Source: Ruminococcaceae bacterium UBA5891 (lineage in GTDB: Bacteria; Bacillota; Clostridia; Oscillospirales; Acutalibacteraceae). Taken from it: DNA of 64,000 bases. Below the pieces are notes generated by a model. The model was given only the letters and a program-made list of their open reading frames with translations, made no database searches and was not told where the DNA came from. The stretch spans positions 446-64,445 of the forward strand of contig DJET01000048.1 in NCBI GenBank assembly GCA_002431945.1, given 5' to 3'. The position numbers were made by a program, and so were the translations under genes. Of this stretch, positions 37,482 through 54,352 are shown one piece after another. Within the stretch, counting starts at the first letter, position 1, and each line of letters opens with the position of its first letter.

Positions 37482-40400
37482 TCAGCTTTTGTAGGATATT
37501 TCGCCTGCTTCGCCGGTCGGAGGTATTTTAAAGCTTGCCATAGCCTGCCAATAATTGCTGTTTAATACGGTAGGAACAGCGGTGCCGGTATGGTCGGAGT
37601 TATTATACACCACCTTGTAGGCGTAAAGGAAATCATTGGTTATATCCCTGTCGTCGTCGCACAAAAAAACATCGAGCTGAATATCAGAGTTTGATTTATT
37701 CGTGACGGTAATAATATACACGCCGTTTGCATAATCGGAGCTGTAATCGGGGTCATTCGAATCCATTTTCTTAAAGGACAGATTGACCGAAAAATTGTTC
37801 TGATTTGTTCCCTGCGGCGCCGTTGTTGAGAAAAGCAAAACCGAATAATTGTTTTCCCCAAGCCTTGCCGGAGCGGTGCGGTACTCGGTTTTAAAGGCGT
37901 TGGTTACGGCATTGCCCTCAGAGCTGATAACCTTTTTTATCGCTTCACCGCCGTTTGCGGCAATGTCAAGATAAATAAGGTATGCGCCGGTTTTACCGCT
38001 TACCGAGCCGAGGCAGTATTCGCCCTTGTTGCAGGGTATTTCAAAATAATATATGTTATTACCTTTGCGGTTGAATCCGGGATTTTTTATCCATTCGGTT
38101 TTAAAGACAGATTTATAATCCGAAATATCGACATCGGCAGAATATGTGTTGTCTTTAAACTTGTATACATAAGAGACTGCTGAGCCCTTTTCCTTATGCT
38201 CATATATTTCTTCAATTTCCTTAATGTCGGTTATTTTATTGTTTTCATCTCTGAAAACCTGATGAAGTGAGAAGAATGAGTTGTTGCCTGTAAAATAATC
38301 GCCCGCAAAAAAGTTAATTGAGCCTCTTTCAATAACATTAAAGTCAATGCTGTCCATCGGCATTTCGTAATTATCGTATTCCTTGCCTAAAACAACCGCT
38401 TTTTCGGCAGTTACAAGATAATCCTTGGAAATTTTAGCGTCCATAAAGTGCAGCCCGTAAACAGAAGTGGAACCATCAAGCGTATCAAGCAGCTGTTTTG
38501 ACGCCGTTTGGTAAGCCGGAGAATTTGCGGTGTATGAATGTTTTCCGTTTCCGTCAACCGTATAAATAGTTTTGAAAGCTTCGGGATCTTCAGTATCATA
38601 AGAACCGCTTACAGAGCTTATCGAGAAGTATGAAATACGTATATCTCCGTATGCTTTCTGACCATCATCTGTGGCTGTTGAATCCTCCAAGCGTGCGCCG
38701 CTTATAATATATCCCGTGTTTTTTTGCGAAACCTTAAAAGGATCCGCAGCGTCGTACCAACCGTTTTCATTTTCGTCTGCAATTCTAAGCGGGAAGTAAG
38801 ACTGATATCCGCCGATAACATTTGTCTTTGTTTCTTTTGTAATTCTTTTTTGAGTGGTCTTTTCAAAATCAAGGCTGTAATCAACCGTAATGGGATTTGA
38901 AATATTAACATTCGGTGAAGGAACGACCTTTTCCTGCACTGCAATTTCCGGAAGATTATCCGAACGGGCTTCTGCCGCAACGTGTTCAAAAATCGGTGTA
39001 AAAGTAAGCGTAGTCCCCGTTGTGTTTAAATCCTTCCACGAATTGTTTGTTGTGATATAAAAATTAGCGTTCTGACCCCAGCCACTATTTTTATTAACGT
39101 AAAGTTTATTGCCGTTATTTAACCAGTTTTCACCTGAATTATTACTGGTATTTAATGTATAAGAATAGCTGCCATACCAATTCCTGCTTCGGCTGACGCT
39201 AAGGTATTTTGTGGTTCCGTTTATTACGGTTGAGATAGTCCCGGAATAGGTGCTTGGATTTGAAAACGTCCATTTTGCGGCATTTGCTTGATTTGTTTCA
39301 TTTATTATGTTGCCGCTCGAATCGATACTCAAATAATTGTTACCGGAAGAAATTGTATACTTGGGGAGTGAAATCTTCCAACCGCCGTCATAAACAAGAT
39401 AATAATCGGTATTGTCCGCTCTTAAACATCCGTCGGCGGTAAAGGACCAATTTGTTGCGGTGTCAGCAAAAGAGCCGTTGCTCACCCCTAAATAATACTG
39501 AGAATTGTTAAAATTATAAGTGATGTTACCGGAATCGGAGTTTGAAAAATAAAAACGGGTTGCATTATCTGCCGTGGCATTTGAAAAGCTGTTGTTGCCG
39601 TCGGCCTTAAGGTAATTTCCGTTGCCGTCGGTTATAAGCTTATATTCAAGTGTAACCGCTTCCCAACCGTTATTATAACGGATATAATAATCCCTGCCGT
39701 TATTGGTATAATAGTATGAATTGCCGTCTTTTTTCCAGTTAAACGGGGTTTCGCTTACGGTAAGTCCGGAGTTAAAGCTTATATAATACGGTACGGAATT
39801 TATAAATGTATAAAACCTTATGCCGTTTGCGTCCTCTTCGGTCTGCCAAACAAGAGCGGTGTTCTCTGCGGCATTTTTAATGCTTTTTGTATCGGCAGAA
39901 AGGTAATTGTTATTGCCGTCGGTAATCAGCTTACCGATACAGGCGGCTTTCCAGCCGTTATCGTAAACCAGCCTGTATTTAACGCTCACATTGCCGAATG
40001 TGAGGGTTCTTGTAAAATATCCGTCGCTTTCAAGCGTCCATAAAATATCTTCGTCTTTTGTCGACTCGGTCAGCGCAAGACTGCCGTTTACGGTAAGATA
40101 ACAGCTCTTATCACCGATTTCGGTGCGAAATTTATACTTATCACCCGAAACGGTCACCTGCCATTTAACCGAACTGCTTTCGGAGCGCGCGTTTGCAATC
40201 TCGGCACCGCCCGTACCGTTTGTTGCCGAAAGGAAATTACCGTTGCCGTCTGAAATATAGCAGTATTGCGTAAAGGACGATATTCCCCATTCGGCGGAGC
40301 AGTTAAGATAATAGTCGATTCCGTTCACGGTTGTATAAAGCGCGTCTTGTTCATTGCGAATCCAAACCGTGCTTGCAGACTGCGATACCGTAACGCCGGA

Positions 40401-53005: not shown

Positions 53006-54352
53006 ATGCAAAAAGTAAATATGCGAAAGTTCAGCAAATTCAGCTTTATATTTGTTTCAATAATGCTGCTCCTTATTATTGCAAGTTCATTATACGGTTT
53101 AAATGATTTCTATGCTATACGCAAAAGCTCAAAGCAGTACATACTTTGCGAAAATGCCGCACACAAATTACAAAGGGGTTCTGATATTCTCACTGAACAG
53201 GTTCGGCTTTATACAGTAACAGGCAATGCGGAATATTTACAAAACTATTTTAAAGAAGTCAATGTAACCAAAAGCCGCGAATCTGCTGTGGAAGAACTGA
53301 AAGAAAATTTTAATGAAACGGAAATTTATCACGATTTGGAAGACGCACTCGCTTATTCACGCCAGTTAATGCAAAAAGAATATTACGCCATGCGTTTAAC
53401 CGCCGAGGCTTTAGGAACAAATACAGATGATTTGCCGAATGAAATTGCAAATGTACAGATTTCCGAAGACGATATGGTTTTGTCTGCCCTTGAAATGCGA
53501 CAAAAAGCATGCAATATGGTTTTCAGCGACATTTATCAGGAATTTAAAAACAGCATTACAAGCCATGTAGACGACTGCTTAAAGGGATTGATTGAAAAGA
53601 CCGAAAATCGCCAGCAAGCCGCATTATCAATACTTAAATGCATATATGCGGTTCAGGCGGTGCTGATAATTGCATTGGCAATATATATTACGTCAGATAG
53701 CATTATTATGCAAAAAATGATAATTGAGCCGATTGTCAGTTACAATGAAAAGATCGAAAGTGATGAGATAATCCCTATCGCAGGCGCGGCAGAGCTTCAA
53801 TCGTTAGCCAAAACATACAATAAGATACTTAAAGAAAATCACGAATCGCAAAAACGCATAAGGTATGAGGCAGAGCACGATTCACTTACCGATTTACTTA
53901 ATAAAGGCACATTTAACAAAATTCTAAACAAGAAGATTGAGGATAAAAAAGAATTTGCGCTTATGGTTGCAGATATTGATGAGTTTAAATCTATTAACGA
54001 TGTGAACGGTCATGATATCGGCGATGAAGTAATTAAATATGTCGCAAAAAAATTGCAGGAAATTTTCAACGATAATTGTTTTGTATTCCGCGTAGGCGGC
54101 GATGAATTTGCTGTAATTATAGATAATGCTTTTGAAAATTCAAAGCAAATTATCGAAAACAAATTTAACAAACTAAAAACAGCTCTTGCCTCCCCTACCG
54201 TTATTCATTCTCCTATTACAATCAGTGCAGGCGTTGCATTTGAAAATAAAAATATCACAAGCGATTGCCTTTTCAAGAATGCCGATAAGGCACTGTATAT
54301 GTCTAAAAACTGCGGCAAAAACAGAATTAACTTTTGTGACTCTGATTTTTAA
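53006..54352 (+). CDS. Membrane-associated diguanylate cyclase (GGDEF domain)
   Basis: 448-aa ORF. N-terminal TM, a sensor region, a second TM, then a GGDEF domain with an intact active site (RVGGDEFAVII, DIDEFKSINDVNGHDIGD). Confidence 0.85.
   Translation: MQKVNMRKFSKFSFIFVSIMLLLIIASSLYGLNDFYAIRKSSKQYILCENAAHKLQRGSDILTEQVRLYTVTGNAEYLQNYFKEVNVTKSRESAVEELKENFNETEIYHDLEDALAYSRQLMQKEYYAMRLTAEALGTNTDDLPNEIANVQISEDDMVLSALEMRQKACNMVFSDIYQEFKNSITSHVDDCLKGLIEKTENRQQAALSILKCIYAVQAVLIIALAIYITSDSIIMQKMIIEPIVSYNEKIESDEIIPIAGAAELQSLAKTYNKILKENHESQKRIRYEAEHDSLTDLLNKGTFNKILNKKIEDKKEFALMVADIDEFKSINDVNGHDIGDEVIKYVAKKLQEIFNDNCFVFRVGGDEFAVIIDNAFENSKQIIENKFNKLKTALASPTVIHSPITISAGVAFENKNITSDCLFKNADKALYMSKNCGKNRINFCDSDF

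Follow-up and report, generated by a model that had tools for sequence, protein, structure and literature searches.

A c-di-GMP-controlled gene cluster of gut Clostridia and its probable product, a TasA-like surface fibre or adhesin

What do secreted proteins, SipW-type signal peptidases, an McrBC-like GTPase pair and c-di-GMP riboswitches do side by side in one bacterial locus? They are found together in the window, by which we mean the whole 64,000-nucleotide stretch of DNA that was analysed, and the original prediction read them as a self-contained, second-messenger-controlled machine for an extracellular fibre or adhesin. Every element that it listed is present within positions 37482-54352: a giant member of 1449 aa (A), two SipW-type signal peptidases (F and I), three c-di-GMP riboswitches (49.5-60.2 bits), a membrane McrB-like AAA+ pair (G, with a TM helix, and H, with DUF2357), and a degenerate EAL protein, a cyclase and a phosphodiesterase (C, L and K, respectively). 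As argued below, its product is probably a TasA-like fibre or adhesin on the cell surface, made at high c-di-GMP.

Gene Content and Conservation

The genes of the locus are as follows.

37482..41840, minus strand: A, giant secreted protein, 1449 aa counted from its ATG (open reading frame and translation)
41837..42577, minus strand: B, putative E-like minor subunit of 246 aa with a GTG start (translation)
42973..43812, plus strand: C, cytosolic degenerate EAL protein of 279 aa (Pfam EAL 1.7e-17)
43812..44561, plus strand: D, type-II membrane protein (alignment, AF2 model, Foldseek)
44819..45574, plus strand: E, secreted beta-sandwich protein of 251 aa (alignment, AF2 model)
45851..46567, plus strand: F, SipW-type signal peptidase 1 (TIGR02228 64.6 bits; NF046067 1e-26)
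46651..48237, plus strand: G, membrane-tethered McrB-like GTPase (NF008457 3e-5; E. coli McrB structures 1e-4)
48371..49669, plus strand: H, McrC-like partner (Pfam DUF2357, the McrC N-terminal domain, 1e-9)
49656..50294, plus strand: I, SipW-type signal peptidase 2 (TIGR02228 92.5 bits; NF046067 1e-27)
50291..50578, plus strand: J, charged helical protein of 95 aa, found in a subset of species
50630..52945, plus strand: K, two-TM sensor protein (Pfam EAL intact, 2.9e-55)
53006..54352, plus strand: L, membrane GGDEF diguanylate cyclase (Pfam GGDEF 1.3e-33, GGDEF intact)

This cluster is kept in many gut Clostridia. The order riboswitch-C-D-E-SipW-McrB-McrC-SipW-(J)-PDE, that is r-C-D-E-F-G-H-I-(J)-K, recurs in dozens of species and is conserved in some 45 genomes at species level and in over 50 contigs from metagenomes. 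When neighbours are counted from G, both D and F are present in 51/51 contigs and H in 54/54, which makes D-F-G-H an invariant core, followed by I (46/54) and E (40/51). Counted from E, the figures are 45/53 species for F, 43/53 for both G and H, 41/53 for I and 39/53 for K, the last conserved gene of the operon. D adjoins E in 52/65 species loci, C is found in 52/65 species, and 56/65 species loci have a c-di-GMP-I aptamer in the 3 kb upstream of E. The gene-neighbourhood comparison thus finds synteny kept and SipW-type peptidases co-occurring with the subunit genes. Homologues of A that have a riboswitch upstream occur in about 9 species, with conserved ends and a variable middle; the B-A gene pair, translationally coupled through a 4-nt overlap, is also found in loci L010, L054 and L062. 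The position of L varies between species. A serine recombinase gene adjoins the locus.

It could be argued that chance has placed a SipW/TasA-like unit next to a stray McrBC restriction system and to c-di-GMP genes unrelated to either. The only points in favour are that the parts are heterogeneous and that no functional link between McrBC and secretion is known. The synteny statistics refute this reading, to which we give next to no credence: neither the order kept across so many genomes and contigs nor the invariant core is expected of chance neighbours, and the DNA-binding domain has been lost from G and the nuclease from H. Comparison of sequences instead supports the view that the cluster is one self-contained system under c-di-GMP control, and in this the original prediction stands.

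Control by c-di-GMP

Three divergent or tandem leaders carry the regulatory elements, while the F-G-H-I-J-K operon has a promoter of its own.

42607..42635, minus strand: strong intrinsic terminator (12 bp, 9 GC) directly 3' of rs1, the expression platform of B-A
42630..42707, minus strand: aptamer rs1, leader of B-A (RF01051 c-di-GMP-I, 60.2 bits, E=2.8e-9)
42717..42745, minus strand: promoter of rs1-B-A, sigma-70-type TTGACT-17-TATAAT (11/12 matches)
42798..42826, plus strand: promoter of rs2-C-D, consensus TTGACA-17-TATAAT (12/12 matches)
42836..42912, plus strand: aptamer rs2, leader of C-D (RF01051 c-di-GMP-I, 50.3 bits)
42905..42948, plus strand: terminator hairpin and U-tract, putative ON-type platform, whose 5' arm overlaps the rs2 3' strand
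44591..44619, plus strand: promoter of rs3-E, consensus TTGACA-17-TATAAT
44629..44705, plus strand: aptamer rs3, leader of E (RF01051 c-di-GMP-I, 49.5 bits)
44697..44742, plus strand: terminator hairpin and U-tract, putative ON-type platform, overlapping the rs3 3' strand
45652..45667, plus strand: terminator-like hairpin 3' of E
45765..45793, plus strand: promoter of the F-G-H-I-J-K operon, consensus extended -10

All three aptamers exceed the RF01051 gathering score (35), their E-values lying between 3e-9 and 1e-6, and a search with a model made from the three detects aptamers in about 70/83 sources. Among the operon leaders, an intrinsic terminator follows the aptamer immediately in 50/51, and in 49/50 of those its 5' arm reaches the last aptamer helix, the overlap with the conserved aptamer 3' strand being mostly 2-11 nt. 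Such overlap points to an ON-switch design, since an aptamer 3' strand that doubles as the terminator 5' arm means that binding of c-di-GMP would block termination. We infer this direction of control for the C-D and E leaders; at rs1 the overlap of terminator and aptamer is no more than about 2 nt. A promoter, riboswitch and terminator of its own make E a monocistronic unit, and the RF01051 scan finds no riboswitch at the F-G-H-I-J-K promoter.

The locus also encodes proteins that would handle the signal itself. Judged from its residues, C (gene call HAY97012.1) is a catalytically dead EAL fold, as the active-site Asn, DD and Lys are lost and the EALxR region is not alignable; it is a candidate c-di-GMP receptor or adaptor. 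K is, by its intact EAL domain, a predicted c-di-GMP phosphodiesterase, and its GGDEF domain is degenerate (LDDGKF; 20 bits, under the cutoff).

Signal Peptidases and Their Candidate Substrates

Both F and I pass the cutoff (51.85) of TIGR02228, the archaeal/ER-type signal peptidase I model, and the best named match of each is SipW (NF046067). The catalytic Ser, His and GDN are conserved in 56 homologues of F and kept in I. F has TM helices at its N- and C-terminus and a charged cytosolic tail, and a C-terminal TM helix with a cytosolic tail is common to both peptidases.

Four proteins, A, B, D and E, had been singled out as having a hydrophobic helix followed by an aromatic motif, and the translations read as described, both for the N-terminal motifs (SFAWFAK, LGWFANGN, KFGAFTV and TYAWFSMNKN) and for the C-terminal ones (YFDGENADVYTDN, AFDGENETTQYKGD and IWLEGNDPDCVDK). 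A homologous N-terminal module of 40-50 aa is common to A, B and E and has the form of a TasA-style signal peptide and mature N-terminus: against the E-family N-terminus, hhalign gives a probability of 92% (P=6e-7) for that of A and 85% (P=6e-6) for the first 50 aa of B. D has only the transmembrane part of this module in common. In A, the signal or anchor helix (a single TM at 10-28, with SFA↓WFAK) begins a conserved N-terminal module (about 1-500), which is joined to a conserved C-terminal module (about 1000-1450) through a variable middle of fascin/beta-trefoil-like repeats (weak Fascin Pfam match). A is a candidate tip adhesin.

E is the candidate major fibre subunit. Its family comprises 4431 clusters without a curated model, with A27, W28, F29, M31 and N32 invariant in the family alignment and a predicted SipW site at TYA↓WF. 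Conservation is highest over approximately the first 25 residues of mature E, a segment that the monomer model shows as disordered (AF2 pLDDT 84 overall; below 50 at residues 21-42). Identity across relatives is 30-40% for E and 58-75% for G and D, and a fast-evolving E beside slower G and D fits the expectation for an exposed major subunit. D consists of a conserved cytosolic tail, a TM helix, the KFGAF motif and an extracellular beta-sandwich (AF2 pLDDT 73; residues 51-65 disordered), and is a candidate for anchoring the fibre in the membrane or nucleating it.

How closely are these proteins related to TasA? The E-family and TasA-family signal peptides align in register (1-29 to 1-29) around T-[YW]-A-[WA]-F with a probability of 61% and a P of 8e-5 that is inflated by the compositional bias of signal peptides. 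None of 50 E-family members matched PF12389, NF046066, TIGR04088, TIGR04089 or TIGR04090, in a comparison that did detect TasA itself as positive control, and A, B, D and E have no match to the curated TasA, CalY, BsaA or SipW-cognate signal models of Pfam and NCBIfam. Full-length hhalign comparison with the TasA family profile is not significant either (E probability 5%, D 0.9%). The C-terminal motif is the best local alignment of E with D (P=0.004) and with TasA (P=0.007), neither of them significant. Structure comparison of the D and E beta-sandwich models gave weak matches to the TasA and AbpA fibres (Foldseek E-values 1e-3 to 1e-1, TM at most 0.33). Membership of the small proteins in the TasA/camelysin family is not supported, there being no curated-model match or significant profile-profile similarity. 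What is left of the TasA-like claim is the in-register signal peptide, the conserved disordered N-terminus, the obligate linkage to SipW and the weak fold matches.

Alternatively, A, B, D and E may be single glycan-binding proteins held by their N-terminal helices, in a retention-and-release adhesin system without a fibre. LapD/LapG provides an analogy for such control by c-di-GMP. The SipW peptidases would then release or activate the adhesins, while G/H and C would control cleavage by signalling the c-di-GMP state of the cytosol to the outside. The best structural matches of D are PA14 carbohydrate-binding domains (1e-4), ahead of AbpA (1.4e-3) and the TasA fibre (2.5e-3; Foldseek probabilities of these two 0.94-0.96), so these proteins could be non-polymerising adhesins. 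The lectin-like repeats of A, the cytosolic tail and uncleavable-looking motif of D, the C-terminal TM helices and tails of both peptidases, and the conservation in the operon of a dead EAL protein and a dedicated phosphodiesterase fit this reading as well. However, a simple shed adhesin does not explain a mature E N-terminus that is conserved and disordered, a pattern typical of donor strands; the consensus promoter in front of a monocistronic E is what one would expect for a bulk structural subunit; and AbpA and TasA fibres are among the PDB matches of the E and D models. We regard the retention-and-release reading as rather unlikely, and a fibre as the better account.

The GTPase Pair

G is the most conserved protein of the system. 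In place of the McrB DNA-binding domain it has a strongly predicted TM helix (residues 62-80) and a short coiled coil with an invariant heptad (L96/I100/L103/V107/L110/I117), which precede an AAA+ core with Walker A GISGTGKTS, Walker B LDEMN and N-N-D-D at the position of McrB NTAD. Conservation of H is confined to residues 1-270, with no nuclease domain detected in H and no nuclease family in a 938-aa homologue. By analogy with McrBC, a ring-plus-plug architecture is expected of the pair.

G has its closest relatives among GTPases of the defence type, namely the PADLOC candidate family PDC-M26A (6e-35) and the CoCoNuT clade. It might thus be proposed that the McrBC-derived pair is an anti-phage or abortive-infection core and that the secreted proteins are surface decoys or receptor-masking factors, the more so as G falls in the N-x-D-[D/E] clade of McrB proteins, of which the members studied best are predicted to be restriction systems (PMC11090510), and a serine recombinase lies next door. 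Several findings make this improbable. Neither H nor its long homologue has a nuclease, HEPN or other effector domain, G has exchanged DNA binding for a membrane tether, and PADLOC matches none of six other proteins. Moreover, c-di-GMP riboswitches, a cyclase and a phosphodiesterase are a hallmark of lifestyle and adhesion genes, and dozens of species carry the locus as one and the same type of chromosomal operon, not in variable defence islands.

A Model for the System

The reading that we favour, with modest confidence, is a donor-strand fibre that is induced by c-di-GMP, processed by SipW and served by a GTPase module for assembly or regulation. High c-di-GMP would be bound by the class-I aptamers, preventing termination and turning on C-D and E, and probably B-A too. 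A, B and E would enter the membrane through the TasA-type N-terminal signal helix and be cleaved by F and I after small -3/-1 residues (TYA↓WF, SLG↓WF and SFA↓WF). The freed mature N-terminus may then serve as the donor strand that joins E beta-sandwiches into a fibre, with B as adaptor, the giant lectin-repeat protein A as distal adhesin, and D as membrane-embedded base or nucleator, a role suggested by a motif that violates the cleavage rule and by its conserved cytosolic tail. G and H, whose genes are linked to those of D and the SipW peptidases, might work together in the cytosol as a motor or switch that is coupled to D and the SipW tails and powers or gates processing and assembly; this mechanism is speculative. 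Lastly, C, K and L would tune the local c-di-GMP signal. Taken as a whole, these five steps seem somewhat likelier than not to be the best explanation of the locus.

Comparison with Known Systems

The locus was first taken to be undescribed, which holds in part. Its class has a name, since loci that combine an McrB GTPase with signal peptidases were called CoCoPALM in one paragraph, with analysis deferred (Bell et al., eLife 2024, PMC11090510), and by architecture the locus matches that definition. Shared features are an McrB-like GTPase with an N-terminal TM helix and coiled coil and the N-x-D then D signature, an adjoining McrC homologue that has DUF2357 but no working nuclease, operon genes of the signal-peptidase family, and occurrence mainly in Bacillota. 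Unlike the typical McrC homologue of 850-950 aa, H is short (432 aa) and has no obvious coiled coil. In the literature searched, the c-di-GMP control, the subunit families and the giant adhesin were not found: c-di-GMP has 0 occurrences in PMC11090510, EAL and GGDEF are absent from the accessible part of its supplementary material, and neither the D and E families nor a giant adhesin unit was found described there. Literature searches found neither the name CoCoPALM in any later paper nor the E-family motif in any.

TasA-superfamily fibre genes typically adjoin signal peptidase I genes (bioRxiv 10.1101/2024.12.30.630787; PMC11580942). The sipW-bsaA-bsaB-bsaC genes of C. perfringens likewise form a clostridial SipW operon whose matrix subunits are remotely related to TasA, form membrane-anchored oligomers and have an N-terminal disordered loop proposed to drive donor-strand exchange (PMC7395162, PMC11580942). 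However, TIGR04090 is unmatched here, BsaA export is tied to genes for type IV pili and not to McrBC, and the Bsa operon lacks riboswitch control. The archaeal TasA-superfamily filaments AbpA (PDB 7UEG) and AbpX and the cannulae CanX are also monoderm surface filaments (PMC9245690; bioRxiv 10.1101/2024.12.30.630787). AbpA is the best PDB fold match of E (rank 1, E=0.011) and among the top ones for D, both matches being weak, but these filaments assemble without chaperones or NTPases.

The B. subtilis tapA-sipW-tasA operon resembles the locus in having a dedicated SipW-type peptidase beside the subunit genes, a signal peptide that ends in T-[WY]-A↓[AW]-F, accessory subunits beside a major one of about 250 aa, and a beta-sandwich with a free N-terminal segment. 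The locus lacks a match to the TasA models PF12389, NF046066 and TIGR04088 and significant profile-profile homology, and the contrast in accessory genes holds as predicted, with giant A, dead EAL C, the G/H pair, the riboswitches, K and L all present. TasA needs no NTPase, whereas here the GTPase pair is obligatory, and there are two peptidases and control by c-di-GMP riboswitches in place of SinR/SlrR. McrBC type IV restriction and CoCoNuT systems share the homologous AAA+ GTPase core and DUF2357 partner, but here there is no DNA-binding domain, PD-(D/E)xK or HEPN nuclease, and the GTPase is membrane-tethered in a secretion/adhesion operon. In Firmicutes, c-di-GMP terminator riboswitches are found on surface adhesin and pilus genes, such as C. 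difficile pilA1, CD2831 and CD3246 and B. thuringiensis cap, where the cargo is type IV pili or sortase-anchored adhesins. The cargo here is instead a SipW/McrBC-dependent system, and the switch occurs up to three times per locus.

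Organization of the locus

The gene map, based on an ORF listing and family scans of the window, comprises the twelve genes given below as A to L.

Genes of the locus (coordinates, strand, assignment)
37482-41840, minus: A, giant candidate adhesin, 1449 aa counted from ATG
41837-42577, minus: B, candidate minor E-like subunit, 246 aa from GTG, 4 nt overlap with A
42973-43812, plus: C, degenerate EAL protein (EAL fold, 1.7e-17)
43812-44561, plus: D, candidate membrane base, without family
44819-45574, plus: E, candidate major subunit, without family
45851-46567, plus: F, signal peptidase
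46651-48237, plus: G, McrB-like AAA+ protein
48371-49669, plus: H, McrC-like partner with DUF2357, the McrC N-terminal domain
49656-50294, plus: I, second signal peptidase
50291-50578, plus: J, 95 aa
50630-52945, plus: K, degenerate GGDEF and intact EAL
53006-54352, plus: L, intact GGDEF

The host is an uncultured Ruminococcaceae/Oscillospiraceae MAG, and its public annotation lists C, D, E, and H as "hypothetical protein" and F and I as "signal peptidase I." The locus elements listed in the original prediction were all recovered by the ORF listing, family scans, and Rfam, and every motif it quoted is found in the translations. Perfect or near-perfect TTGACA-17-TATAAT promoters lie upstream of three c-di-GMP-I aptamers (rs1, rs2, and rs3), a fourth promoter without a riboswitch lies upstream of F, and E is followed by a terminator-like hairpin. 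These features divide the locus into four transcription units, rs1-B-A, rs2-C-D, rs3-E, and P-F-G-H-I-J-K(-L), E being monocistronic. By a simple hydropathy scan, A, B, D, and E have one N-terminal TM helix each, F, I, K, and L have two each, G has one strong helix, and C, H, and J are cytosolic. An antisense ORF of 213 aa inside C and D (43752-44393, minus), whose translation is hydrophobic and of low complexity, is in all likelihood not a real gene.

Because the position of L varies among other species, a rearrangement at the right end of the locus is possible; a large serine recombinase (54521-56209) with Resolvase, Recombinase, and Zn-ribbon domains directly follows this gene. At the other end, positions 1-36226 hold a long minus-strand gene array, among whose members are a GH38 alpha-mannosidase (33608-36226) and an ORF of 1468 aa (18824-23230); this array may be a glycan-utilization cluster adjoining the adhesin locus.

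Conservation of the system

Conservation was surveyed from two sides. On the E side, one genome per species was scanned with the E-family pattern T[YF]AWFSMN, and the best 80 of the 114 confirmed relatives were taken as E-side loci; their six-frame ORFs were searched with the window proteins, and riboswitches were located with a covariance model made from the three window aptamers. In the reverse survey, metagenomes were scanned with a G-family alignment, giving 572 relatives, and counts come from the 80 contigs kept. The canonical order in E-side loci is riboswitch-C-D-E-F-G-H-I-(J)-K. Among the E-side loci with enough flanking DNA, F is near E in 45/53, G and H each in 43/53, I in 41/53, and K in 39/53; D adjoins E in 52/65, C is present in 52/65, and an aptamer lies within 3 kb upstream of E in 56/65. 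Seen from G, D is found in 51/51 contigs, H in 54/54, F immediately upstream of the G-H pair in 51/51, I downstream in 46/54, and E in 40/51. These G-side counts make D-F-G-H an invariant core, in which the linkage of D with the SipW, McrB-like, and McrC-like genes is obligate. The original prediction named gene-neighborhood conservation and the co-occurrence of SipW-type peptidases with the subunit genes as points to check, and both surveys bear them out. Chance juxtaposition, by which unrelated genes would simply have come to lie side by side, is excluded by the synteny statistics.

E is the faster-evolving partner and is at times located elsewhere; across the same lineages, identity is 58-75% for G vs only 30-40% for E. 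The E family contains 4431 clusters (50% identity, E<=1e-3), with 516 clusters at E<=1e-30, and D accounts for 849 clusters at 90% identity. A "riboswitch-A" or "riboswitch-B-A" unit with a giant protein occurs in about nine species, and the homologues of this protein have conserved ends and a variable, repeat-rich middle. The locus in the window is complete and ordinary for its class, which is widespread yet experimentally untouched.

Departures from the canonical arrangement were also seen. In GCA_964327525.1 (L001:11796-12329), a natural deletion has fused the N-terminal end of the G homologue to the EAL-bearing C-terminal part of its K counterpart; most of G is lost, as are H and I, which marks this as a decayed copy of the system that still keeps riboswitch-D-E-F. 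In one human-gut lineage (L105-L125 and comparable metagenome contigs from the human gut), the alternative order "E C D F G H I J" is common, with E either preceding C or encoded on the other strand.

A membrane-anchored McrB-like protein and its partner

G matches NF008457 at 3e-5 and, with its Walker A and B motifs aligned, PDB entries 6hz4, 6ut6, and 7vsr at 1e-4 to 3e-4; the alignment with E. coli McrB runs ungapped from Walker A past Walker B to the signature motif. The MNTADRS of McrB corresponds to ANNDDST in G, where N-N-D-D is invariant across the family; this fits the CoCoPALM pattern of N-x-D, to which D or E is usually added, and is equally readable as N-x-x-D. The DNA-binding domain of McrB is replaced in G by a TM helix (62-80) followed by an invariant heptad pattern (L96...I117); CoCoPALM GTPases are fused at this point to a TM helix and coiled coil of FtsB type, and in G Pfam DivIC/FtsB gave no match at E<=0.1. 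H matches DUF2357 at 1e-9 and no other family, and a search for a nuclease in H and in a 938-aa homologue found none. A type IV McrBC restriction system was rejected, since H matches no nuclease family where McrC would carry PD-(D/E)xK, and G begins with a membrane anchor in place of a DNA-binding N-domain.

The locus therefore contains a McrB-like core, an adjacent nuclease-free DUF2357 McrC homologue, and signal-peptidase-family genes, and this make-up is the architecture called CoCoPALM by Bell et al. (eLife 2024, PMC11090510). In that article, analysis of the class is deferred to "a separate, forthcoming publication" and c-di-GMP is not mentioned; those of its supplements that are searchable as text contain neither EAL nor GGDEF and give no CoCoPALM detail. 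Our literature searches returned the term CoCoPALM in no other paper, the E-family motif in none, and no account in print of a c-di-GMP layer, of the subunit families D and E, or of a B-A adhesin unit. The system is thus named but uncharacterized, and the earlier description of it as undescribed is, as far as these searches reach, apt for those layers but not for the class, which has had its name since 2024.

The typical McrC-like proteins of the system are 850-950 aa long (e.g., L004:13460-16276), and these long forms carry a module of ~110 aa, without Pfam or PDB match, duplicated at the N- and C-termini. H of the window (432 aa) has neither copy, and J was rejected as a split-off piece of a long H as the two show no similarity. 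When G and six other locus proteins were run through PADLOC, G alone matched, and only a candidate defense family (PDC-M26A, E=6e-35); by this match, automated defense-system finders may mislabel this putative fiber locus.

F and I both score above the cut-off of TIGR02228, the archaeal/ER-type signal peptidase model, and carry catalytic residues, in agreement with the two SipW-type peptidases of the original prediction. On NF046067, the Bacillus SipW equivalog, they reach 93 and 97 bits, respectively, vs a cutoff of 190; judged by these scores, they are SipW-type yet not orthologues of Bacillus SipW.

Candidate subunits and their relation to TasA

A, B, D, and E had been likened to TasA, the fiber subunit of B. 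subtilis, and to camelysin. None of the four matches PF12389 (Peptidase_M73) or NF046066 at E<=0.1, and no Pfam or NCBIfam family was found for them. Nor does any of 50 E-family members match PF12389, NF046066, TIGR04088, TIGR04089, or TIGR04090, with the Pfam cut-off set at E<=1. Searched by sequence against Pfam, NCBIfam, and the PDB, neither D and E nor the 50 E-family members gave any match, and a PDB sequence search of A returned noise only. As positive controls, PF12389 was detected in all real TasA homologues, and TasA is recovered by every model expected to do so, with 509 bits on NF046066. TIGR04088, a 34-position signal peptide model on which TasA reaches 38-42 bits vs a cutoff of 19, gave no match in the isolated N-termini of A, B, D, and E at E<=10. 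Going by curated models, the four proteins fall outside the TasA/CalY family, and this part of the original prediction is not upheld.

Profile comparison used a TasA family alignment of 33 sequences built here. At full length, hhalign aligned the E family with TasA at the C-terminal hairpin only (probability 5%, P=0.007) and gave a probability of 0.9% for the D family, neither being significant; the C-terminal module of A gave nothing against E, D, or TasA. The best local match between E and D is likewise the C-terminal two-strand hairpin (P=0.004, not significant). The C-terminal motif once compared to TasA strands is where E aligns best with TasA and with D, but not at a significant level. 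Some weaker signals favor kinship. The N-termini of the E and TasA profiles are in register over residues 1-29, with T25-x-A27-x-F29 in both (P=8e-5, probability 61%, a value inflated by signal peptide composition).

Homology among A, B, and E extends over 40-50 aa, a module that consists of a helix, [AG][W]F, about 10 residues, and the first strand (probability 92% for A and 85% for B against the E family). Small residues occupy positions -3 and -1 before the tryptophan (SFA in A, SLG in B, and TYA in E), as they do in TasA, where TWA precedes alanine. D has K-F-G-A-F at this point, which breaks the -3/-1 rule, and the charged residues of its cytosolic tail are invariant, so that D is expected to stay anchored in the membrane.

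The model of E is a confident β-sandwich (pLDDT 84) with residues 21-42 disordered, and that of D (pLDDT 73) consists of a long TM helix, a disordered linker (51-65), and a β-sandwich. Foldseek searches of the PDB with E gave no significant match; the archaeal bundling pilus AbpA (7ueg_A, E=0.011) was at the top, followed by other donor-strand pilins and the TasA fiber (8aur_A, E=0.13). With D, PA14 domains came first (1e-4), then AbpA (1.4e-3) and the TasA fiber (2.5e-3), the last two being weak matches with probabilities of 0.94-0.96 and TM-scores of 0.31-0.33. The structural comparison with TasA that had been suggested thus yields β-sandwiches for both proteins but only weak matches, with TM-scores of 0.22-0.33 across E and D. 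On these models, a fold-level kinship of E and D with the TasA superfamily is plausible but unproven. The conserved mature N-terminus of E, disordered in the monomer model, suggests that E may polymerize by donor-strand exchange.

Some further residues deserve mention. Two cysteines (C123 and C216) are invariant in the extracellular domain of D, in hosts that are strict anaerobes, and the acidic loops of this domain (DGEHNG and WLEGNDPDC) are possible calcium-binding sites, such as occur in archaeal TasA-superfamily filaments. In the putative donor segment of E (residues 28-45; 44900-44950), Asn32 is invariant and Lys45 nearly so; subunits might thus be joined by an intermolecular isopeptide "lock" of the kind proposed for C. 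perfringens BsaA.

Predicted control by c-di-GMP

Rfam identifies three RF01051 aptamers in the window (60.2, 50.3, and 49.5 bits vs a gathering threshold of 35), one upstream of each of B-A, C-D, and E. In rs2 and rs3 the aptamer 3' strand is also the 5' arm of the terminator (..CAGCUGCAA..), and enforcing the aptamer in leader folding abolishes the 3-4 base pairs adjoining the U-tract. The arrangement is general: across the window and 49 other species, an intrinsic terminator directly follows 50/51 operon-leader aptamers, and in 49/50 leaders its 5' arm extends to the last helix of the aptamer, mostly overlapping 2-11 nt of the conserved 3' strand GCCAG(U/C)UGC. Overlap of terminator and aptamer is the classical design of an ON switch, in which ligand binding prevents termination, and from this structure c-di-GMP is predicted to turn on the C-D and E leaders. 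The rs1 terminator is strong and its overlap with the aptamer is only about 2 nt in leader folding, so that B-A control may be of either sign. The terminator of this giant-adhesin leader (42607-42707, minus) is much stronger than those of rs2 and rs3, and in the minimum-energy fold it coexists with the aptamer; the B-A unit may respond differently to c-di-GMP.

The EAL proteins were compared over the catalytic and metal-binding set (EALxR, N, ExxE, DD, K, E, and Q). C has lost the active-site N, DD, and K, keeping just the first Glu (CLEF) and DGV, and is thus at most a receptor or adaptor. K retains the full catalytic set by reading of its sequence, along with a degenerate GGDEF, and is a predicted phosphodiesterase; L is a predicted cyclase. 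A role for the locus in defense is unlikely, as no effector domain was found and the regulation is of the lifestyle type.

Proposed mechanism

These elements can be assembled into one pathway. A rise in c-di-GMP would turn transcription on, and F and I would cut A, B, and E between [A/G] and WF. The conserved, disordered mature N-terminus would then serve as the donor strand that polymerizes E, with B as adaptor, A as distal adhesin, and D as membrane base. More speculatively, a hexamer of G with H plugged in could sit under the membrane on its coiled coils, and GTP use by this pair may drive or license processing and assembly via the tail of D and the cytosolic tails of the peptidases; C and K could convey or limit the c-di-GMP signal. 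Taking all steps together, we hold this composite fiber mechanism to be slightly favored. Its main rival is a Lap-like scheme of retention and release in which nothing is polymerized, which we regard as rather improbable. Type IV pilins were rejected, as the translations and locus families have no G|F..E signal, prepilin peptidase, or PilB, and sortase pili likewise, as there is no LPXTG or sortase and the "IPPTGE" close to the C-terminal end of A is not followed by an anchor. Overall, the original observation is confirmed, and its reading as a self-contained, c-di-GMP-controlled fiber machine is partly supported.

The fullest version of the fiber pathway is tentative, and we lean somewhat against it in its entirety. 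It would be an uncharacterized route of pilus or fiber biogenesis in monoderm gut bacteria, in which a domesticated, membrane-tethered McrBC GTPase of restriction type, deprived of its nuclease, acts with two SipW peptidases and a base protein to assemble new TasA-superfamily-like donor-strand subunits that bear a giant tip adhesin of lectin type. As many as three ON riboswitches would let c-di-GMP start this machine, and a dead-EAL receptor and a phosphodiesterase of its own would tune it. The E-type subunit family of this proposed pathway has >4000 sequence clusters and no curated model.

Significance and relation to known systems

To our knowledge, almost nothing is known of how these organisms attach to mucus, fiber, or other cells. 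If the model holds, gut and rumen Clostridia own an unstudied route to surface fibers, a McrBC restriction-enzyme motor has been re-used for cell-surface assembly, and c-di-GMP is tied directly to adhesion. The E and D families, thousands of clusters that are all "hypothetical," would gain a testable function, and the CoCoPALM class its first concrete mechanistic hypothesis. Carriers are found among Oscillospiraceae, Ruminococcus, and Christensenellales-like lineages, of which many are abundant in human samples, and some carriers are cultured (e.g., Ruminococcus sp. FC2018, NZ_JHXH01000001.1), which makes the hypothesis directly testable. The idea would be surprising to specialists, although the class was pointed out in print before and its function is an inferred one. 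The closest characterized analogues are tapA-sipW-tasA, sipW-bsaABC, and the archaeal TasA-superfamily filaments, from all of which the present system differs in its obligatory McrBC-derived GTPase module and its control by riboswitches.
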